From a bacterium (lineage in GTDB: Bacteria > Krumholzibacteriota > Krumholzibacteriia > G020349025): DNA of 30,067 nucleotides. The notes below the pieces were generated by a model, which ran no database searches, was not told the DNA's origin, and saw only the letters and a program-made list of their open reading frames with translations. The stretch is from assembly GCA_031362565.1 (NCBI GenBank), contig JANLSU010000032.1:1-30067 (forward strand), in the 5' to 3' direction. A program made the translations under genes and the position numbers. Of the stretch, positions 6,204-22,459 are shown in pieces; the stretch's first letter is position 1, and the number at the start of each line of letters is the position of its first letter.

Positions 6204-6701
6204 GCGTTCTCGACGCCCCCCGGGTGCAATCTAAAATGGAAGTGCGCCGCGACGCCAGGCGGCGCCACCCCCCGGCCCGGGGCCCACCACGCCGTTGCCG
6301 GGGTGGGGAAGACCACCCGGACCGGCGCCAAATCGGCGCGCGTCGATCGCTTCGTAGATTTCCCACGCGCCCTGCGTGATGCCCGGTTGCGTCTCGTGAC
6401 GTCGCGCGCCCTGGCGTCTGCGGTGCGATCGGGCGCCGGCCGTTCACCTTGGACAACGCGGAACCGCGACGATGATCACGCTATCTCTGGAGTTGGTGAG
6501 ACGGTTTGCGTTATAATTTTGCGAGCACACGATCGTTTGCGGTGGCACTGCCATCGCACCTCGTTCGGACCGAGCCCACCGTCACAATAGAGGCATTCCT
6601 CGCCCCGCGCCCGTGCGAGCTCGGCACATTGTTGTTTGTTCGCTAAGCATCGACTCCGAAGTCATTGCCGTCACACCGCGATTGCTCTCAAGGATGGACC
6701 C

Positions 6702-9700
6702 ATGTCGAAGTGGAATGGTGGGCGTTCGGACCAGGGCATGAGGCCGGGTCGGCGCCACAAAGCCCGCATCGGGCGTTGGATTGCGCTGGCGGGATTGTTT
6801 GCGACCAGCATCACGGCCATACCCTGCGCCTGGGCGGGTGCTGGGTCGGCGCGTCCGATCGACCGTGACGCGCTCACGCCGGCGGAGCGGCAGAAACTGA
6901 ATGGGATCGCGGCCGCTGCCCCCAACGACCTGCTTGACGCCGGGTTCGACATGTTCGCAACCGCGTCCGGCAGCACCGGCGAAAAACCGCAATCCAAGAT
7001 CTGGTACCACGACGGCTCGTATTGGGGCGCGTTCCGTGGCTCGGACGGCGTTGCGATCTATGAAAAGCAAGGCTCGACCTGGGTTCACGGCACATTCGCG
7101 AACGCCCTGCTGTCGACGGGTGGCCACGCCGACGTGAAGTGGACCGGCACGAACCTCTATGTGCTCGTCTACAACACCACCTGCAATGTGTTCGAGTTCA
7201 CGTACAACAGCGCGGCGCGGACCTGGACTCGGACGAGCGGATTCCCGGTCAAGGTGCCCAACCCCGCGGGCTCGGAAACCATGGTGCTCGAGTCGGATTC
7301 GACGGGCCGGCTATGGCTCGTGGCTGAGGGCGGCGGCAATATCAACGCCTACTACACGACGAGCGCCGACCGCAAGACGTGGGCGACCACACCCGTCATG
7401 CTGCAGACCGGCGTCGGTGCCGATGACATCTGCTCGATTGTCGCCTTTGGCGGCAACAAAGTCGGAGTCTTCTGGTCGGATCAGAATCGCGATGACTTCG
7501 GATTCCGCATCCATACCGATGGCGATTCGCCCGCGACGTGGGCAACGAAAGAACTGGTGGATCAAGGCTCCGGGCACGCCGACGACCATCTCAATCTCGC
7601 GTACGATTCGAGTGGCCGCGTGTTTGCGATCACCAAGGACGCCTCCGATCGCATGACTGTGCACCGGCGTAACACCAACGGCAGTTGGTCTCACGTCACG
7701 GACGTTGTGGGCGGGAACGCGACCCGCGGTATCATCATGGTGTCGGAGTCGGATTCCAAGCTCTACATCTTATACACGCGTTGGGGTGTGTCACCGGAAC
7801 GCATCGAGTACCGGGTCGCCGACATCAACATCATGGCCTTCGGCGGCACGGTGCAGTTCATTACTTCGTCCGCCAACTTGAACAACGTCACGGGCATGAA
7901 ACAGATTCTGCCGCCCGGCAGCTTGTGCGCCGCGGCCGAAAACGGCAGCCATTTGCTGTACAACAGCTTCGGCAGTCCGCCGCCGGGCAGCAACCCGCCG
8001 CCACCGCCGCCCACGCCGCCGGTTGCACCCGCGAACGTCTTGGCGTCGTTGCTCAACGGCACACAAATTCACATCACCTGGACCGCGGCCGCGGGCACGA
8101 TCGACGGCTACAATATCTACCGGCAGTTGGACGGCGGCAGTCTGACCAAAATCAACGCCGCCCTGGTCGCGACGCTCAATTTCACCGACACTGCACCGCC
8201 GACGGGGAATCTGTGTTATCTGGTCCGCTCGCAGCGGAATGGCTTGGAGAGCATTTCGTCCACGGCTTCGTGCCTGGCGTACGCTCCGCCGCCGCCGCCA
8301 CCGCCCGCGTCGCCCACGAACGTGCTGGCGTCGTTGTTCAACAGCACGCAGATCCAAGTCACTTGGACCGCTGCCACGGGCACGATCGACGGCTATAACG
8401 TTTACCGGCAGTTGGACGGCGGCAGTTTCGCCAAAATCAACGCCGCGTTGATCACCCTCCTGGCTTTTACCGATACGGCGCCGGCGACCGGCAACCTCTG
8501 TTATCAGATCCGCTCGCAGCGGAACGGACTGGAAAGTGCATCCTCCGGGGCCTCGTGCTTGTCGTATGCGCCACCGCCTCCGCCGCCGGTTCCGCCGACG
8601 GACGTCGTGGCGTCGCTGTTCAATAGCACAGAGATCGAAGTCACGTGGACGGCGGCCACAGGCACGATCGACGGCTACGACATCTATCGGCAGTTGGATG
8701 GTGGCAGCTTCACCAAGATCAACGGTGCTTTGGTGACGTTGCTCACCTTTACGGACTCGGCACCGCCGACCGGCAACCTTTGCTATCAAGTCCGGTCGCA
8801 GCGCAATAGTCTCGAGAGCACGCCATCCGCGGCTTCATGCCTGGCGTTCGCACCGCCTCCGCCGCCACCACCCCCGCCGCCGGCTGCGCCGACAGACGTT
8901 TTGGCGTCGTTGTTGAACGGCACGCAGATTCAAATCGGTTGGACGGCGGCCGCGGGCACGATCGATGGCTACAACATCTATCGGCAACTCGACGGCGGTG
9001 GTTTCGCCAAGATTAACGCCGCCCTGATTGCCGCGCTCGACTTCACGGACCCGGCGCCGCCGACCGGGAACGTGTGCTACGACGTGCGCTCACAGCAAGG
9101 CACCATGGAGAGCGGGCCGTCGACGGCCTTCTGCCTGGACTTCGCACCACCGCCGCCACCCCCGCCACCGGCTGCACCGACGGACATTCTGGCGTCGTTG
9201 TTGAACGGCACGCAGATTCACGTCACGTGGACGGCAGCCGCGGGCACGATCGACGGCTACAACATCTACCGGCAACTGGACGGCGGTAGTTTCGCCAAGA
9301 TCAACGGCGCCTTGATTGCGGCGCTCGACTTCACGGACCCGGCGCCGCCGACCGGGAACGTGTGCTACGACGTACGCTCACTGCAAGGCCCCTCGGAGAG
9401 CGGGCCGTCGACGGCGTCCTGCTTGGACTTCGCGCCCCCGCCGCCACCCCCGCCACCGGCTGCACCGACGGACATTCTGGCGTCGTTGTTGAACGGCACG
9501 CAGATTCAAGTCATGTGGACGGCGGCCGCGGGCACGATTGACGGCTACAACATCTATCGACAGTTGGACGGCGGTAGCTTCGACAAGATCAACGGCTCTT
9601 TGATTGCGGCGCTCGACTTCACGGACCCGGCGCCGCCGACCGGGAACGTGTGCTACGACGTGCGCGCGCAGCAAGGCGTTTTGGAGAGCGGACCCTCGAC

Positions 9701-11027
9701 CGCCTCCTGCCTGGCATTCGCACCGCCGCCGCCGCCACCTCCTCCGCCGGCGCCAACCGAACCGCAGACTCTGACTGCGACCTTGGTCACCGTACCGGGG
9801 AGCGCGGTCCCGGGTGCGGGAGCGTGGCCTTTCGATGAAGGCAGCGGCCAGTCGTTCGCGGATGCCACCGGCGCGGGCCACACCGGCCAGCTTGGCACGG
9901 CTGCCGGCGTCGACACCGCCGATCCGCTCTGGGGCGCGGGCGTAAACGGCACAAGCGCGTTGGTCTTCGACGGTTCGAATGACCGCAGCGCAATCCCCGA
10001 TGCGGCCGACCTGCATTTTGCGGGCAGCTTCAGCATCGAGGCTTGGGTGAAGCGTGATGTCATCGGGGCGAAGCATTGCATCGCCAGCAAGGGCGACAGC
10101 CAGCACCGGAACTTCTGGGTGGTCATCGATGGGTCGAATCGCATCGATTTCCGCTGGGAAACCGCCGGTGGCGGCAACCACGGGGTGACCTCCAACACAA
10201 TCATCGCCGATCTCAACTGGCACCATGTCGCATGTGTGTACGACGCAGTGGTGCATCAGAATCGCATCTATTGCGACGGGCTGCTGGTCAAATCGGCGAC
10301 CGACAACGGCACCCCCATGACCAGCACCGATCCGGTGTATATCGGAGCGCGGTTGTCGAGCGGCAAGCTGACCGATTACTTCCGCGGCAGCATCGACCAG
10401 TTGCGGATCGCGCCGGGAACTCTGTACTTGAGCAACTTCATTCCGGCGACCTCGTTCGGCGGCGGACCGCCGGTGTCGGCCGTGCAGCTCGCGTGGCAGC
10501 CGCCACTGTCGGGTTCCATTGCCGGCTACAACGTCTATCGCCAAGTCGATGGTGGCATGTTCGCGAAGTTGAACGGAGCCCTGATCGGCGCCCCGAGCTA
10601 CGTCGACGGCACGCTGCCGGCCGGCACCCTGTGCTATCAGGTGACGGCGGTGGACGCCATCCCGCAAGAGGGACCGGCTTCGACCGAAGCCTGCGTCAAT
10701 CAGAACGCTGCCAAGGCTGCCACCAAGGTGACGTCGACGACGGCACCGCATAACGACGCCCAGCTGTCGGCGGGTCCGAATCCGTTCAATCCGACAACCA
10801 CCGTTTCGTTCTCGCTGCCGCACGCGGGCGTGATCCACCTCGCCATCTTTGACATCCGCGGCGAACGGATTGTGACGCTGGCCGAAGGTCTGCATGCCGC
10901 CGGTGCGCACACCGTAACTTGGAACGGCCATGACCAACACGGCAGAGCCGTGGCTTCCGGCGCGTACTTCCTGAAGCTCGACGGTGACAAGATCTCGCAG
11001 CACCGCCGTATCGTGCTGCTGAAGTAG
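6702..11027 (+). CDS. Large secreted protein: N-terminal beta-rich (propeller-like) domain, six FN3-like repeats with polyproline linkers, LamG-like domain, split seventh FN3, FlgD/T9SS-like C-terminal domain
   Basis: ATG 6702 after AAGGA; signal-like segment; repeats of W...GYNIYRQ...F.D...CY.V; LamG features (WPFDEGSG, FSIEAWVK, WHHVACVYD, FRGSIDQLRI); PNPFNP...IFDIRG...WNG...SGAYFLKL tail. Confidence 0.9.
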   Translation: MSKWNGGRSDQGMRPGRRHKARIGRWIALAGLFATSITAIPCAWAGAGSARPIDRDALTPAERQKLNGIAAAAPNDLLDAGFDMFATASGSTGEKPQSKIWYHDGSYWGAFRGSDGVAIYEKQGSTWVHGTFANALLSTGGHADVKWTGTNLYVLVYNTTCNVFEFTYNSAARTWTRTSGFPVKVPNPAGSETMVLESDSTGRLWLVAEGGGNINAYYTTSADRKTWATTPVMLQTGVGADDICSIVAFGGNKVGVFWSDQNRDDFGFRIHTDGDSPATWATKELVDQGSGHADDHLNLAYDSSGRVFAITKDASDRMTVHRRNTNGSWSHVTDVVGGNATRGIIMVSESDSKLYILYTRWGVSPERIEYRVADINIMAFGGTVQFITSSANLNNVTGMKQILPPGSLCAAAENGSHLLYNSFGSPPPGSNPPPPPPTPPVAPANVLASLLNGTQIHITWTAAAGTIDGYNIYRQLDGGSLTKINAALVATLNFTDTAPPTGNLCYLVRSQRNGLESISSTASCLAYAPPPPPPPASPTNVLASLFNSTQIQVTWTAATGTIDGYNVYRQLDGGSFAKINAALITLLAFTDTAPATGNLCYQIRSQRNGLESASSGASCLSYAPPPPPPVPPTDVVASLFNSTEIEVTWTAATGTIDGYDIYRQLDGGSFTKINGALVTLLTFTDSAPPTGNLCYQVRSQRNSLESTPSAASCLAFAPPPPPPPPPPAAPTDVLASLLNGTQIQIGWTAAAGTIDGYNIYRQLDGGGFAKINAALIAALDFTDPAPPTGNVCYDVRSQQGTMESGPSTAFCLDFAPPPPPPPPAAPTDILASLLNGTQIHVTWTAAAGTIDGYNIYRQLDGGSFAKINGALIAALDFTDPAPPTGNVCYDVRSLQGPSESGPSTASCLDFAPPPPPPPPAAPTDILASLLNGTQIQVMWTAAAGTIDGYNIYRQLDGGSFDKINGSLIAALDFTDPAPPTGNVCYDVRAQQGVLESGPSTASCLAFAPPPPPPPPPAPTEPQTLTATLVTVPGSAVPGAGAWPFDEGSGQSFADATGAGHTGQLGTAAGVDTADPLWGAGVNGTSALVFDGSNDRSAIPDAADLHFAGSFSIEAWVKRDVIGAKHCIASKGDSQHRNFWVVIDGSNRIDFRWETAGGGNHGVTSNTIIADLNWHHVACVYDAVVHQNRIYCDGLLVKSATDNGTPMTSTDPVYIGARLSSGKLTDYFRGSIDQLRIAPGTLYLSNFIPATSFGGGPPVSAVQLAWQPPLSGSIAGYNVYRQVDGGMFAKLNGALIGAPSYVDGTLPAGTLCYQVTAVDAIPQEGPASTEACVNQNAAKAATKVTSTTAPHNDAQLSAGPNPFNPTTTVSFSLPHAGVIHLAIFDIRGERIVTLAEGLHAAGAHTVTWNGHDQHGRAVASGAYFLKLDGDKISQHRRIVLLK
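8025..9750 (+). repeat. Six tandem ~285-bp intragenic repeats (FN3-like unit plus poly-Pro linker)
   Basis: Units start near 8025, 8310, 8592, 8886, 9174 and 9462; units 4-6 are very similar at DNA level. Confidence 0.9.
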
Positions 11028-16184: not shown

Positions 16185-16469
16185 ATGTCTGACCCTACGA
16201 TCGAAATCTCGTTGGATGCCCGCTCCCGGGCGGCGTACTTGCGGCTGTCGGGGAGTGCGGTTGGACGCACTCATCAAGTGCAGCCGGAACTGATGTTGGA
16301 TACCGATCAGGCCGGCGATGCCGTTGGTATCGAGATCCTGAGCATGCAGGCTTTCGAGTTTTTTATCGCCAATCAGCAAGATCTGTCCCGCCGGTTTCAC
16401 CTGCGGCAACTGTCTCCGGAGGACCTGGAGACTGTGCGCGCCTTCTTCGAAGAGAAGAAAGCGTCGTAA
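16185..16469 (+). CDS. DUF2283-family protein (putative antitoxin)
   Basis: D....AAYLRL...T......LMLDTDQAGDAVGIEIL; ATG 16185 after GAGG; the ORF-track 5' extension to 15849 is spurious. Confidence 0.8.
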   Translation: MSDPTIEISLDARSRAAYLRLSGSAVGRTHQVQPELMLDTDQAGDAVGIEILSMQAFEFFIANQQDLSRRFHLRQLSPEDLETVRAFFEEKKAS

Positions 16470-16490
16470 GCGGCGCAGCTCCCGCGCGGA

Positions 16491-16519
16491 TTGACAATCG
16501 AGCGATGTGGATTTAGCCT
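16491..16519 (+). promoter_or_regulatory. Putative sigma70 promoter for the 16553-19410 operon
   Basis: Perfect -35 TTGACA, 17-bp spacer, -10 TAGCCT; GGGAGAG RBS-like sequence before ATG 16553. Confidence 0.65.
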
Positions 16520-16552
16520 GGCTCTCCTTGCTACGGAACACGGGAGAGTCGC

Positions 16553-17806
16553 ATGGTGGTCTCGACTCGATCGATCACGCCGTCTCCGGACCGCTCGCCA
16601 GCCACTCCGGCAACGCCGCCGGTGCCGTGGTTCTTGTGGGCCGTCGTTCTTGCGTCGACGAGCGTCATCATCGGTCTCCTGTGGGATATCTCCTGGCACC
16701 GGACGATCGGGCGCGACCGCTTTCTGACCCCAGCACACATCGCGATCTACCTGGGCGGATTGGTCGCAGGTCTCTCGTGCGGCTGGCTCGCGCTGCAAAC
16801 GACATTTGGGCGCAACGACGCGGCGCGCGCCGCCCGCGAAGGCGGCATCGGCGTGTGGGGATTCCGCGGCTCGCTCGGCGGCTGGATCTGTATTTGGGGC
16901 ACGTTTGCGATGCTGACATCGGCGCCATTCGACAATTGGTGGCATGGCGCCTATGGACTCGACGTCAAGATTCTGAGCCCGCCGCATGTCTTGCTTGGCC
17001 TCGGTATGATTGGAATCGAGATCGGCGCCATGATCATGGTGCTGGCGTACCAGAACCGATTCGCGCCGGCCTATTCCGGACCGCGGTCGATCGTGTCGCA
17101 GCCAAGCGGACGGGCGCACGAACGCGTTCTTGTGTGGATGTTCATCTATACGGCCGGTATCGCGCTGCTCATGGGGGCAACTCTGTGCATGGAGTACATC
17201 GGCTTCCCGAATGCGTGGCACAATGCGTTGTTCGCCCAGATTTGTGCCGGCGCGTTTCCGGTCTTGCTGGCGGCGGTGGCCCGCGCCGGGCGACTCCGCT
17301 GGTCGGCGACCGCGATCGCCGGGGTCTACACGGGCATTACGCTGCTCATGATGTGGATCTTGCAGTTGTCACCCGCGACGGCGAAGCTGGCGCCGATCTA
17401 CAACCCGGTAACGCACATGGTGCCGCCGCCGTTTCCGATGTTGTTCTTCGTGCCGGCGATCGGTTTCGACCTGCTCGTGCGCCGCTTCGAGGGCCGCAGC
17501 GACTGGTTGCTGGCGGTCATTCTAGGAGTCATGTTTGTCGCCGTGACCTGCACGTTGCACTGGTTGTTCGCCAAATTCCTCATCTCACCGGCGGCGCGCA
17601 ACATCGTCTTTGGCGCCAACCAGTGGGACTACAATTCCCGGCTTGGACCCTGGCGCTACGAGTTTTGGGATTTAGACCTCGACAAGAGCCGAAACTGGAG
17701 CCCAGCGCTCTACGCGCGCGGCATCGGAATCGCGCTCGGGCTCGGCATCCTGTCGACGCGGCTCGGACTCGGCTGGGGCCGTTGGATGTCGAGGGTGTTG
17801 CGATGA
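16553..17806 (+). CDS. Polytopic membrane protein with two D-x3-H...H metal motifs; putative PmoC/PmoA-like fusion
   Basis: Roughly 10 hydrophobic segments; WDISWHRTIGRDRFLTPAH and FDNWWHGAYGLDVKILSPPH. The CDS is solid; the functional call is inference. Confidence 0.8.
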   Translation: MVVSTRSITPSPDRSPATPATPPVPWFLWAVVLASTSVIIGLLWDISWHRTIGRDRFLTPAHIAIYLGGLVAGLSCGWLALQTTFGRNDAARAAREGGIGVWGFRGSLGGWICIWGTFAMLTSAPFDNWWHGAYGLDVKILSPPHVLLGLGMIGIEIGAMIMVLAYQNRFAPAYSGPRSIVSQPSGRAHERVLVWMFIYTAGIALLMGATLCMEYIGFPNAWHNALFAQICAGAFPVLLAAVARAGRLRWSATAIAGVYTGITLLMMWILQLSPATAKLAPIYNPVTHMVPPPFPMLFFVPAIGFDLLVRRFEGRSDWLLAVILGVMFVAVTCTLHWLFAKFLISPAARNIVFGANQWDYNSRLGPWRYEFWDLDLDKSRNWSPALYARGIGIALGLGILSTRLGLGWGRWMSRVLR

Positions 17807-19410
17807 CAGCGCAGCTTCGCCGCGCGGCGCACGTCGCGCGGACCGCGATCCTCGCCACCGCCATCGTCGCGCTCACCGGAATGCAGAGCATCTGCCTGGC
17901 GCACATTGGCAGCCCGGACACTTGGTACGAGGGACCGGCCGGCGCCTACCCGTTGCGGGTGATTGTACGGGCGCCGAGCGTCGTACCCGGTCTTGCGGAC
18001 ATCACCGTGCGGGTCTTGGACGGCCACGCGACCCGCGTCACCGCCGCGCCCTACATCTGGAATGGCGGCGACACCGGCGCACCGCCGCCCGACGTCGCCA
18101 AGCCGGTACCGGGCGATGCGCAATTGTTTTCCGTGCCGCTCTGGTTCATGACGCCGAGCTCGTACAGTGTGCGGGTGAATGTCGAAGGGGATCGCGGCTC
18201 CGGAACCGCGGTGGTCCCCGTTCAAGCGGTCGCACTCCGGCGTCTCGGCATGCAGAAAACCCTCGGCGTGACGCTCGCGATTCTGGGCATCTTCCTGGTC
18301 GTGCTGGCGCTCAGCATCGTGTACGGCGCTGCGAAGGAAAGTGGTGTGCCGCCGGGCGCAACCAGTGGTGCGAACAGCAAGGCCCGATCGCTGTACGCCG
18401 TTGCTGGTGCAGCCGTAATTCTGGCCGTTGCCGCGACCGGCGGGCGCTTCTGGTGGAGCTCCGTCGATCGGGATTTCCAGCGCACCATCTACAAGCCCTT
18501 CACGTCGGCGGCCCGGGTCATCGAGCGTGGGACCGCGCGCGGGCTCGATTTCGAGATCACCGATCCCGTGTGGCGCGGGCGGCGCTGGTCGCCGCTCATT
18601 CCGGATCACGGCAAACTGATGCATATGTTCTTGATTCGGGAGCCCGGGTTCGATGCGATCGCGCACCTGCACCCGGTGCCGACGGATTCGAGCCACTTCG
18701 AAGTCTGTATGCCGCCGGTGCCCGAGGGGCAGTATCACGTCTATGCAGACATCGTGCACGAAAGCGGCTTCACGCGAACGCTGACGGCAACGGTGGATGT
18801 GCCGGCGCCCAACGCATCGAACACCGCAAGCGCGACCGCCGCCGCGGCGGATACAGCGGCCGCGTTCCATACCGATCCGGACGACTCGTGGTACGTGAGC
18901 CCATCCGGCGTTCAGGCAGCGTCACCGGGCGAGCGGGTGGCGCTCGCGAACGGCGCGACGATGACGTGGGAGGCGCCCGATGCGAACCTCGTCGAAGGAC
19001 GCGACGCCGGCCTGCGCTTCGCGGTGCGCAACGCCGACGGTACGGCCGCCGCAATCGAACCCTACATGGGCATGCTCGGTCACGCGATCGTGCGCCGCGA
19101 CGACGGTTCCGTCTTCGTGCACTTGCACCCGATCGGCACCGTTTCGATGGCGTCGCAGATGGCGCTCATGATGCGCGCTCCGAGCGACAGCGTTCCCGGC
19201 ATGCTCGGCCGCCGCATGAGCGCGCCGGGTCACATGGAGCACATGATGGGTGGGTCGATGAGCGGACTCCCTCACGAACCGGGCGTCGTGATGTTCCCGT
19301 ACGGATTTGCGCAAGCCGGGGCCTATCACATTTGGGTCCAGATCAAAATGAACGGGCAGATTCTGACGGGAGCCTTCGCGGCGACGGTGAAGCCGCCGCC
19401 GCCAGCCTGA
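17803..19410 (+). CDS. Exported, membrane-anchored His/Met-rich protein (signal peptide, mature N-terminal His, two central TM helices, two HLHP domains); PmoB-like topology
   Basis: ATGA overlap with upstream gene; ...SICLA|HIGSP; two TMs at about aa 154-177 and 196-218; HGKLMH, AHLHP, MLGH, VHLHP, GHMEHMM. Confidence 0.8.
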   Translation: MTAQLRRAAHVARTAILATAIVALTGMQSICLAHIGSPDTWYEGPAGAYPLRVIVRAPSVVPGLADITVRVLDGHATRVTAAPYIWNGGDTGAPPPDVAKPVPGDAQLFSVPLWFMTPSSYSVRVNVEGDRGSGTAVVPVQAVALRRLGMQKTLGVTLAILGIFLVVLALSIVYGAAKESGVPPGATSGANSKARSLYAVAGAAVILAVAATGGRFWWSSVDRDFQRTIYKPFTSAARVIERGTARGLDFEITDPVWRGRRWSPLIPDHGKLMHMFLIREPGFDAIAHLHPVPTDSSHFEVCMPPVPEGQYHVYADIVHESGFTRTLTATVDVPAPNASNTASATAAAADTAAAFHTDPDDSWYVSPSGVQAASPGERVALANGATMTWEAPDANLVEGRDAGLRFAVRNADGTAAAIEPYMGMLGHAIVRRDDGSVFVHLHPIGTVSMASQMALMMRAPSDSVPGMLGRRMSAPGHMEHMMGGSMSGLPHEPGVVMFPYGFAQAGAYHIWVQIKMNGQILTGAFAATVKPPPPA

Positions 19411-19417
19411 ACGCACT

Positions 19418-21067
19418 CTATCTCGCGATCATCATGCGCCGCACATGGTCGTGGCCGGCGGTGCGCAGGCGCACGAAATAGACACCAGCCGGCACCGGGG
19501 CGCCAGCTCGGCCGCGGCGATCCCAGGATGCGACGAAGCGGCCTGGCTCCGCGGTTCCCGCGAAGAGGGATTGGATCTCGCGGCCGCGGACGTCGAACAC
19601 GACGAGCGATGCATCGCCCGTAGCTCCGACGTTGTACGCGATTCGCACCGCACCGCTCGGACGCACGAGCGGAATTGGATCGAGGCCGGTCACCGCGATC
19701 GCGGCAGTCGCTTGCACCGGACCCGCGGTAGTTACGACACCGGACTGCTCCACCAGCTCGAGGCGGTACGCATAAACGGTTCCGGGCCGGACTTCCGCGT
19801 CCGTCCACGCGAAGCCTTGGCCTTGCGCCGCGAAGTCCTGGGCCGGGTGCTCGGTGCGAGTTTTGAATGCGCTGGTGGCAGCATCCTCGCCGCGGCGCGC
19901 AATACGAATCGTTCTCAACCCCGCGACAGCCTCAGGTGCCATGCGCCAAGTCAACTGCACACCGTCTTGAAGTGTCTCGGCGCGCAGATCTTCGACGGCG
20001 ATTGGTGTCCGCTGGCCATCCCACCGCGCGATGCCGAGCGCACTCTTGCCAGCCACTTCGATGAACGGACCGCCGCAATAGAGGCTACCATGGAAAGGGG
20101 CGATTGCTTCGATTCGCGCGTTGAGTTGCGTGCTGAGCGGCACCCAGTTCGACCCCTGAACCCGGTAGAGCCGGCCACGTTCATGGTAGCCGTTCGGAGT
20201 GACCTATTCATTCCACGATGTTGCAACGACAAGCTCGCCGTTGTACCACGTCACGTCGTGCACTGCGACGTCGGGGGCATTGCCGACGAGTGTCCATGTG
20301 CTGCCGGACCATCGGACGAGGTGGATCTTGCCGTCCGGCAGGGTGCTGCCCAGTGCGTAGAGGGCACCGTTGACGATGCGCAGATGTTGCACGTGGCGGA
20401 TCGGTTGATCGTGAAACGATGCCCATTCGGTTCCGGTCCATTCGGCGACGCTCGAAATCGAGCGGCGCCCATTCCAATTGAAATCGCCGCCGGCCAGTAG
20501 CCGGCCGTCATAGACGACAAGGTCATGGATCGCGCCACCGTAGGGCGGGAACGGCGTCCCTTCCCACCGCTGGCCCGTCCAATGAGCGACATTGGGTGTC
20601 TGGTTCGTGCCGTTGTAGAAGAAGGGGCCCGCCACGAACAGTTCGTTTTGGTATGAAGCAAACGTCTCGACATTCCCACTGAACCGCTCTCCAAACGACG
20701 TCCAGGCGCTGCCATCCCACGCCGCGATGCCGTTCGACGGCTGTCCTCCCGCGTGCGTGAAGGCGCCGGCGACGTACAGGCGATCGCCGATCGTCGCCAC
20801 TGCGGAGACGGTGCCATCGACACCGGCTCCGATCGATTCCCACGTCGTGCCGCTCCAGCGCGCGACGCCGGAAATCGGCTGCCCACCGGCCGAAGTGAAG
20901 TTGCCGCCCGCGACCCAATCGCCGCGGTAGCTGGCGAACGCGCTCGGATACGCTTGTGGGCGCAAGTCATCGTTCCAGCGTGCGTCGACGCCTTGCCCGG
21001 AAGTGAGTGGCTTCCAGCGCCTGGCCGGACGTCCGAAGGCGGTCCGTCGGCGCAACGTGACGATCAT
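19418..21067 (-). pseudogene. Beta-propeller repeat protein with FlgD/T9SS-like C-terminal domain, interrupted by one in-frame TAG (20204-20206)
   Basis: ORFs 20204-21214 and 19418-20143 share a frame, and translation continues sensibly across the stop (SWNE*VTPNGYHERGRLYRVQGSNWVPL). GGxFTxAGG / ARWDG repeats; likely ATG at 21067 after GGAGG. Confidence 0.75.
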
Positions 21068-21238: not shown

Positions 21239-22459
21239 TCACGGACTCGCCTGCAGGCGTCGAAAACGAAGTTCCGCGATCAGATCCGCAGTGATTTTGG
21301 GGGGGAATGGCAGCGTTCCACTTGCCAGCCGCTCGCCGAGCGATGCCAGCCGTGCGAGCAAGCCATCGAGCACCTTCTCGGCGCCGCGGGCCGGGAGCCC
21401 AATTTCCGACGCAAACTCCAGCAGGTGTTTGCGGGAGATGCCCGAAGTCCGGCCGAGCATCGACAGCGCCAGGCTCGTGTCGCCATACGGCACCGTCGAG
21501 GGAAGGTCGTATGCCGGCGAGATGCGCCATTCCCGGTCGGAGGTGGCGAGGATCGAAAGGTTCTTGGCGTGCACGTCACCGTTCCCCGTCAGCCACGCGA
21601 AGCAAATTTGTTGGTACAGGGCGCGCAGCGCGACCGGCCGCGCCGCGCACCGGTCGGCGAGCGCGCCGACCACCTGTTCGTACGTCACGCTGTACTTGTC
21701 GGCAGGCCATCGGCCCAGCACCTGGCACGCGTCCTCACATGCTAACGCCACGCTCGAGCCATCACGCTGGGCAATGCGGTCGAATCGGCGCACCAGCAAT
21801 CCGGCCTGCCCGTCGGCGTCGTGGACAACGGTGGCTCGCGCGCAAGATAAGCGCGTTTCGTGGGCGAGTTGCAGGAAGAAGGCCTCGTTCTCCACGACGT
21901 GCGGGAACTCGGGTGGATTGAGCTTGAGCAGGTAACGCTCACCGGCGCGCGCCAGCGGCACCGAGATCATGCGTGCGGATACTTTGTCCTGCACCCCTGG
22001 GAGCGCAACGGCATCGACGATGCCGGTGTCGGTGAGCACGTCCGCGAAGCGGACGTCGGACCACTCGCGTTCCACGGCAAGAAGCGGACGGGCCGGCGTG
22101 GCCGGCTGGCCGCTTGGCACGACTTGGACGTCGCCGATCGTATCGTGACCAACGGCGAGTAGCAGCGACAGCTCGTCGTCGGCGGAAGCCTTCACCGAGC
22201 GGCGAAGCCCCGATAGTCTTCGGCCTTCCGGTAGAAGGCCGGTGAAGAACGGCGGCACCGCTCCGGCGGTGCTGCGGACCGGCTTGTCGCTCAACGGCAA
22301 GGTGGTTGCAACCGCAGGTCTGCCCGATGCGAGGTATTCGGCGCTGTACGAGAATTCGATGCCGTCAGTCTGACGTCTCAATGTCGCCGCATGGATGCCG
22401 GATTTGTAAACCGCCGCTTCGACAACTGTTGTCAGTGCTTCGAGATGGGACGTGTTCAA
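21239..22459 (-). CDS. hipA: HipA-family toxin (kinase) with N-terminal HipA-couple domain
   Basis: PPFFTGLLPEG, LPGVQDK, YLLK, ENEAF, RRFDR, EDACQ, GNGDVHAKN, SPAYD. Confidence 0.92.
   Translation of the reverse strand: MNTSHLEALTTVVEAAVYKSGIHAATLRRQTDGIEFSYSAEYLASGRPAVATTLPLSDKPVRSTAGAVPPFFTGLLPEGRRLSGLRRSVKASADDELSLLLAVGHDTIGDVQVVPSGQPATPARPLLAVEREWSDVRFADVLTDTGIVDAVALPGVQDKVSARMISVPLARAGERYLLKLNPPEFPHVVENEAFFLQLAHETRLSCARATVVHDADGQAGLLVRRFDRIAQRDGSSVALACEDACQVLGRWPADKYSVTYEQVVGALADRCAARPVALRALYQQICFAWLTGNGDVHAKNLSILATSDREWRISPAYDLPSTVPYGDTSLALSMLGRTSGISRKHLLEFASEIGLPARGAEKVLDGLLARLASLGERLASGTLPFPPKITADLIAELRFRRLQASP

Follow-up and report, generated by a model that had tools for sequence, protein, structure and literature searches.

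A two-gene locus of a Krumholzibacteriota bacterium as a candidate distant relative of the copper membrane monooxygenases

Copper membrane monooxygenases (CuMMOs) comprise the particulate methane monooxygenase (pMMO, PmoCAB), the ammonia monooxygenase (AMO, AmoCAB) and the actinobacterial hydrocarbon monooxygenase (HMO), and are described in PMC13058606 as controlling the biological sink for methane and the initial step of nitrification, as being hard to express and as having a debated active site. Whether relatives of these enzymes exist in bacteria that are neither methanotrophs nor nitrifiers is the question raised by a pair of genes on contig JANLSU010000032.1 (assembly GCA_031362565.1, Krumholzibacteriota), positions 1 to 30,067 of which, the whole stretch of DNA analysed here, are referred to as the window. 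A sequence-only reading of the window had suggested that the pair keeps the C-A-B subunit order of CuMMOs in two genes. With a probability of roughly 60%, we conclude that the gene pair encodes a periplasm-facing membrane copper complex that is a distant and rearranged relative of pMMO, AMO and HMO. The first gene very probably belongs to the CuMMO superfamily. The similarity of its N-terminal half to PmoC appears to be at the level of homology, and that of its C-terminal half to PmoA is one of best-matching fold.

Gene 1 (P0001; 16553..17806, + strand) encodes a 417-residue polytopic membrane protein in which a PmoC-like core is fused to a PmoA-like domain, and gene 2 (P0002; 17803..19410, + strand) encodes a 535-residue exported, membrane-anchored partner rich in His and Met. 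Both assignments draw on the open reading frames (ORFs), their homologues and AlphaFold models. The two frames are joined, as the sequence-only reading had it, through an ATGA at 17803-17806, in which gene 1 stops and gene 2 starts. Homologues with an expectation value (E) of 1e-3 or lower made up 6965 of the 8000 scored candidates for gene 1 and 1463 of 8000 for gene 2, and with homologues in the thousands both ORFs are real genes and not artefacts of high-GC DNA. The remaining long ORFs over the gene pair, one of which is a 967-residue frame spanning gene 1 into gene 2, are unsupported, as is usual for DNA of 64% GC. All homologues of both genes are unnamed or annotated as hypothetical; neither protein has a match in Pfam or NCBIfam, sequence and profile searches of the PDB (both proteins, both alignments) returned chance matches only (E of 0.018 or higher), and in the ESM Atlas gene 1 led to unnamed clusters only and gene 2 to a YtkA-like lead at 0.76. 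In the literature, judged from titles and the openings of abstracts, no account was found of a PmoC/PmoA-like family that is fused or belongs to non-methanotrophs.

The AlphaFold2 model of gene 1, based on 44 sequences, has a mean predicted local distance difference test score (pLDDT) of 89.1 and a predicted template modelling score (pTM) of 0.89, and contains about ten long helices, bearing out the polytopic character read from the sequence. The first four helices (residues 26-51, 60-85, 108-134 and 143-170; 16628..17062, + strand) form two hairpins that correspond to the PmoC-like core. In the first hairpin, D45 and H49 belong to the final part of helix 1 and H62 to the first part of helix 2; in the second, D127 and H131 belong to the final part of helix 3 and H145 to the first part of helix 4, so that each hairpin carries one Asp/His/His triad at its turn. 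Since the loops between the hairpins are rich in Arg, both triads would face the periplasm according to the positive-inside rule.

The spacing of these residues is that of subunit C. One of the PmoC sequences compared contains D128-x3-H132-x12-H145 and N199-x3-H203-x13-H217, and gene 1 contains D-x3-H-x12-H (D45, H49, H62; 16685..16738, + strand) and D-x3-H-x13-H (D127, H131, H145; 16931..16987, + strand), each motif occurring once per protein; the second, CuD-like triad differs from that of CuMMOs in having Asp in place of Asn. We take the D-x3-H-x12-H triad of PmoC to be the CuC ligands. This assignment is supported in general terms by PMC13058606, in which the AmoC sites, made up of two His together with Asp (CuC) or Asn (CuD), are described as highly conserved and as the now favoured active site. 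Around the first triad the likeness exceeds the ligands themselves, with DGTWHQTVIRDTDFTPSH in PmoC and DISWHRTIGRDRFLTPAH in gene 1, and the identities fall within an 18-residue stretch, D-x-(S/T)-W-H-x-T-x-x-R-D-x-x-x-T-P-x-H, whose loop portion from the W-H onwards is common to CuMMOs and gene 1.

Profile-profile alignment points in the same direction. In HHalign, the N-terminal half of gene 1 (75 sequences) aligned to 16 PmoC, AmoC and HmoC sequences over 95 columns with a P value of 4.9e-6 and a probability of 86.2%, which lies below the usual 95% and comes from a PmoC profile of only 16 sequences and from 42 comparisons in all. Both triads are in register, and at a looser setting the alignment extended to 126 columns. 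The controls for the same half were clean, with P values of 0.28 for the reversed PmoC alignment, 0.044 for PmoA and 0.64 for PmoB. The Pfam AmoC family also recurred below its threshold, in 3 of the 44 members of the first alignment and in 10 of 74 more diverse representatives (best E 0.0011), where any other family appeared at most twice. Taken together with the motif spacing, these results uphold the claim that the N-terminal half is PmoC-like.

The CuMMO operons used for comparison included annotated plasmid copies from Methylocystis, Methylomagnum, Nitrosomonas, Mycolicibacterium chubuense NBB4, Mycobacterium dioxanotrophicus and Rhodococcus. With single-lineage PmoC, PmoA and PmoB profiles, HHalign gave 70-74% for the N-terminal half against PmoC and nothing for the C-terminal half, and adding the plasmid-borne proteobacterial and actinobacterial sequences raised the results of both halves. 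On the Methylomagnum ishizawai plasmid, amoA, amoB and amoC stand in A-B-C order and are followed by a gene for a major facilitator superfamily transporter, an arrangement that is presumably the known pxmABC type. The genome sets drawn from the phylum of a locus titled Candidatus (Ca.) Methylomirabilota and from that of one titled Limisphaerales overlap, and the two thus seem to be filed in a single group; the CuMMO operons found there number three per genome, plus a divergent extra copy.

Conservation of the triads was assessed at two depths. All six residues, D45, H49, H62, D127, H131 and H145, are invariant in the 44 aligned homologues, as the sequence-only reading required of its D/H residues. 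The diverse set consisted of P0001 and 74 of the 150 listed representatives at 50% identity, 355-440 residues long, after 76 had been dropped as fragments; here D45, H62 and D127 are each kept in 73 of 75 sequences, H145 in 67, H131 in 66 and H49 in 61. Short representatives were also considered as split forms of gene 1, but this was rejected as they begin at a conserved internal Met or Val and look like truncated gene calls.

The C-terminal half of gene 1 (residues 182-417; 17096..17803, + strand) is a PmoA/AmoA-like membrane domain. PmoA and AmoA chains are the best Foldseek matches of the gene 1 model, accounting for 11 of the 50 matches listed, with probabilities of 0.96-1.00 and target TM-scores of 0.50-0.61, and by this comparison the C-terminal half has the PmoA fold. 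The match in HHalign is weak (29.5% probability, P 5.7e-4 against 12 PmoA sequences), but the two sequences run collinearly through 211 of some 236 columns and the controls have P values of 0.29 or more. A competing assignment would be to the S-components of energy-coupling factor (ECF) transporters; the well-resolved PmoA and AmoA chains lie about 4 Z units above the best of them, with roughly 40 residues more in the alignment, and S-components, with their lower score and coverage, bring neither a sequence signal nor an energising module nearby. The PmoA match is also the one predicted from the adjoining PmoC-like half, and the earlier description of this half as PmoA-like holds on both the structural and the collinear profile match.

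Gene 2 encodes a protein with a signal-like helix at residues 2-31 in its AlphaFold model (pLDDT 89.6), after which a beta-sandwich (39-142) leads into a pair of long helices (152-179 and 190-228); two further sandwiches follow, at 235-333 and at 362-530, the last of which carries a helical, Met-rich insert. The segment of residues 1-33 together with His34 (17803..17904, + strand) resembles a signal peptide and its cleavage site; His34 is invariant in 44 of 44 members, follows an A-x-A-like site and is likely to be the first residue of the mature protein. Domain 1 (residues 34-145; 17902..18237, + strand) is an immunoglobulin (Ig)-like sandwich, the transmembrane hairpin (18256..18486, + strand) separates it from domain 2 (232-336; 18496..18810, + strand), and domain 3 (360-535; 18880..19407, + strand) completes the chain. 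Domains 2 and 3 are duplicates of one another (HHalign 83%, P 8.7e-6), and in each of them one His is followed 12-13 residues on by H-x-H-P: H274 with H288-x-H290-P in domain 2, which also has D268 and H269 among its invariant columns, and H427 with H440-x-H442-P in domain 3, all six His being invariant. The mature protein of 502 residues contains 17 His (3.4%) and 20 Met (4.0%), 10 of the latter within the 47 residues 444-490 that approximately make up the insert. The prediction of an exported, anchored and His/Met-rich protein is thus borne out.

The further claim that gene 2 is PmoB-like stands for domain order and topology, and not for sequence or fold. P0002 has no match to Monooxygenase_B (PF04744), the 44 members do not show this family either among the 25 listed of their 26 matched families, and PmoB does not appear among the 50 matches of either gene 2 fold list; the likeness to PmoB is therefore in layout only. 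The fold matches are to Ig-like sandwiches generally, with CrdA and CopC among the best matches of the individual domains; CopC scores 8.9 and the metal-binding proteins P19 and Tp34 8.1-8.3, and CBM56 and FN3 domains score similarly. Weak Pfam matches among the 44 members are to PKD (14), CopC (3) and YtkA (2); neither CopC (PF04234, best E 0.067) nor YtkA (PF13115, best E 0.00056) reached its threshold in these members, and P0002 matched neither.

The family is large and the two genes travel together. A profile of the 44 gene 1 sequences matched 2577 clusters at 50% identity with E of 1e-3 or lower, 1540 of them at 1e-10 or lower, and in species-representative genomes at least 574 matches were confirmed, out of 600 found by pattern. 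Judged by their titles, the best 80 genome matches come mainly from Gemmatimonadota, then from Acidobacteriota lineages, Ca. Eisenbacteria and Verrucomicrobiota, with one from Ca. Methylomirabilota, and these 80 loci, from several phyla, are the basis of all linkage and neighbour counts. In 76 of them a gene 2 homologue lies immediately 3' of gene 1 on the same strand, which agrees with the expectation that the pair would be conserved. Among the exceptions, one contig (L077) stops 122 nucleotides past gene 1, and three acidobacterial loci (L071-L073) encode a gene 1 homologue with both triads followed by unrelated genes, with no gene 2 homologue there; in these the partner may be elsewhere in the genome or dispensable in that branch. 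Clustering of all ORFs of at least 90 residues from the 80 loci revealed no further conserved neighbour, the large clusters being antisense shadows of the gene pair or Ser/Thr kinases, and the gene pair is a self-contained module. A search for longer, fused forms among 7996 candidates found one fused-looking protein, P0392 (806 residues, one metagenome contig), which was rejected as a natural fusion of gene 1 and gene 2 and is most likely a frameshift read-through, because its residues 230-347 match neither gene.

Several results weigh against the reading as a rearranged CuMMO relative. Profile searches against the curated CuMMO families, proposed earlier as a check, failed in that neither protein reached a threshold: the best AmoC (PF04896) score is 18.8 bits with a cut-off of 26.7, P0001 itself has no AmoC match at E of 1 or lower, and AMO (PF02461) was matched neither by P0001 nor by the 74 representatives at E of 0.1 or lower. 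The Foldseek search with gene 1 gave no match at E of 1e-3 or lower, the best being 0.022. The N-terminal half spans only about 125 of the 275 PmoC residues (PmoC approximately 104-247), and in the 75 diverse sequences each of H49, H131 and H145 gives way to another residue, mostly Gln, Glu or Asp, in 8 to 14 cases. A sub-branch may bind a different metal or none. Gene 2 is at background level against PmoB, with a best HHalign P value of 0.0099 among the 42 comparisons, and neither the window ORFs nor the 80 loci link the pair with a reductase, an alcohol dehydrogenase or any other gene of a pathway. PmoC is also absent from every fold list of the gene 1 model, although this carries no information, as each entry is given a single row in the lists and the PmoA-like half dominates the search with the whole model.

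Set beside the CuMMOs, the gene pair shares both subunit C triads at identical spacing and follows the xmoCAB order, with a C-like half, an A-like half and an exported protein with a likely N-terminal His and, in its model, the layout sandwich, two-helix hairpin, sandwich. The differences are equally clear. CuMMOs have separate xmoC, xmoA and xmoB genes, whereas here C and A are in one 417-residue chain; about 100 N-terminal and about 45 C-terminal residues of PmoC have no counterpart in gene 1; gene 2 has three domains of the Ig type, bears HxHP sites and shows no detectable similarity to PmoB; and the hosts of the gene pair are, by gene content, neither methanotrophs nor nitrifiers.

On the reading of a rearranged CuMMO relative, gene 1 would join a subunit C metal core, with a triad at the outer end of each helix hairpin, to a subunit A-like domain, and both Asp/His/His triads would bind copper. 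Gene 2 would be a hairpin-anchored, multi-site copper-binding periplasmic partner with an N-terminal His, two duplicated H...HxHP domains and a Met-rich loop, and it would capture or deliver copper, or relay electrons, to the triads. The complex could then oxidise a substrate, probably a hydrophobic one, with O2, as CuMMOs do at their subunit C site. This role in oxidation is favoured by analogy with the CuMMOs, and we place a copper- and O2-dependent oxidase or monooxygenase function at the two triads slightly short of an even chance. More tentatively still, and with the odds against it, the pair may represent a minimal two-subunit copper membrane oxygenase, an unrecognised deep branch or surviving early form of the methane/ammonia monooxygenase superfamily that would retain nothing but the subunit C copper core and a subunit A domain and would oxidise a substrate in abundant soil and sediment heterotrophs.

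The main alternative, which the sequence-only reading had itself raised as metal uptake or handling and which we hold to be less likely than oxidation, is that the pair traffics copper (uptake, export or insertion) and is no enzyme, with a CopC/CrdA-like partner handing copper to the membrane Asp/His/His sites. Gene 2 would capture the metal through its N-terminal His, HxH sites and Met-rich loop, and the membrane protein would move or buffer it, in parallel with CopC-CopD and YcnI-YcnJ; such a role may be compatible with homology to PmoC and PmoA. CopC-CopD, YcnI-YcnJ and Helicobacter pylori CrdA likewise pair an exported copper-binding beta-sandwich protein, with an N-terminal His and/or Met-rich sites, with an adjoining gene for a polytopic membrane protein, and the weak CopC and YtkA matches in the gene 2 family, its Met-rich segment, the lack of linked pathway or reductant genes and the single copy of the pair in a heterotroph-like genome all fit this view. 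Those CopC and YtkA matches are, however, far under threshold, and the sandwich matches are generic, as CBM56 and FN3 score equally; gene 1 has no similarity to CopD, and gene 2 differs from CopC in its three domains and hairpin anchor. The duplicated three-His sites and two membrane sites would moreover resemble fixed cofactor sites more than transport sites, and to our knowledge the PmoC and PmoA folds are otherwise known only from enzymes. The reading without any CuMMO kinship, in which a convergent four-helix bundle and an ECF S-component-like C-terminal half form a solitary transporter or receptor, is improbable: every sequence signal does fall under the curated thresholds, but the two halves give independent signals, each matching the expected CuMMO subunit in CuMMO order and neither the other subunits nor the reversed controls, the identities of the 18-residue stretch extend past the ligands, PmoA has the margin over S-components given above, and no ECF A or T component or ATP-binding cassette ATPase is encoded among the 23 window ORFs, nor any conserved neighbour in the 80 loci.

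Under either of the two better-supported readings the family matters, as it is widespread and keeps both subunit C triads in a simpler, two-gene form in hosts without a canonical CuMMO. If it is an enzyme, common soil bacteria would carry out an unrecognised oxidation reaction, and the protein would offer a minimal scaffold on which to test at which copper site the reaction takes place; activity would also mean that a CuC/CuD core and a PmoA-like domain suffice for catalysis without a PmoB-type subunit. A minimal oxygenase carried by Gemmatimonadota, Acidobacteriota, Verrucomicrobiota and others would be a small and tractable model for the disputed CuMMO active site. If the pair instead handles copper, the PmoC/PmoA fold would have a longer history and a wider range of roles than its known use in enzymes.

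The host genome (5.4 Mb in 133 contigs, 100% complete, 1.85% contamination) contains one copy of gene 1, and searches with the AmoC, AMO and Monooxygenase_B families found nothing in it, consistent with the earlier impression that the host does not look like a methanotroph or nitrifier. As a positive control, the Pfam AmoC search matched above its cut-off in 4 of 151 and 5 of 301 other genomes. Within its own phylum the P0001 query matched in 1 of 208 genomes, the host only, 125 of the 208 being of high quality. Composition gave no sign of mis-binning or recent transfer: the contig GC content is 0.640 compared with a genome mean of 0.654 (standard deviation 0.010), and the tetranucleotide distances are within the range of other contigs and random pieces, contig and gene pair alike being ordinary. 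In a genome of the host's family, the gene for an adjoining peptidase has a counterpart at 53% identity. Presence in one genome of 208 with ordinary composition suggests a sporadic distribution or an old transfer.

Upstream of gene 1, a TTGACA (16491-16496) and a TAGCCT (16514-16519) are separated by 17 nucleotides (16491..16519, + strand), as the sequence-only reading had described in crediting the pair with its own promoter. The hexamers and spacer are present as read, but the promoter itself stays putative, because the −10 hexamer agrees with TATAAT at only 3 of 6 positions and a promoter scan of 16200-19700 returned 0 sigma-70-like sites. A same-strand ORF with a DUF2283 domain ends 83 nucleotides before gene 1. 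On the other side, a gene for a 241-residue protein with a C-terminal FlgD_ig domain (19418-20143, − strand) is convergent on gene 2 and lies 8 nucleotides past its end.

The neighbours in the window (23 ORFs scanned) include kinases, one of them HipA-like, together with peptidases, surface proteins and an extracytoplasmic function sigma factor. The HipA-like toxin kinase gene is located at 21239-22459 (− strand) and matches HipA_C (E 1.9e-43) and Couple_hipA (E 2.4e-21). At 6636-11027 (+ strand), a 1463-residue protein combines fn3 and Laminin_G_3 domains with a C-terminal FlgD_ig domain, and both this protein and the 241-residue one may be secreted or located at the surface, with a C-terminal domain of the sorting type in common.

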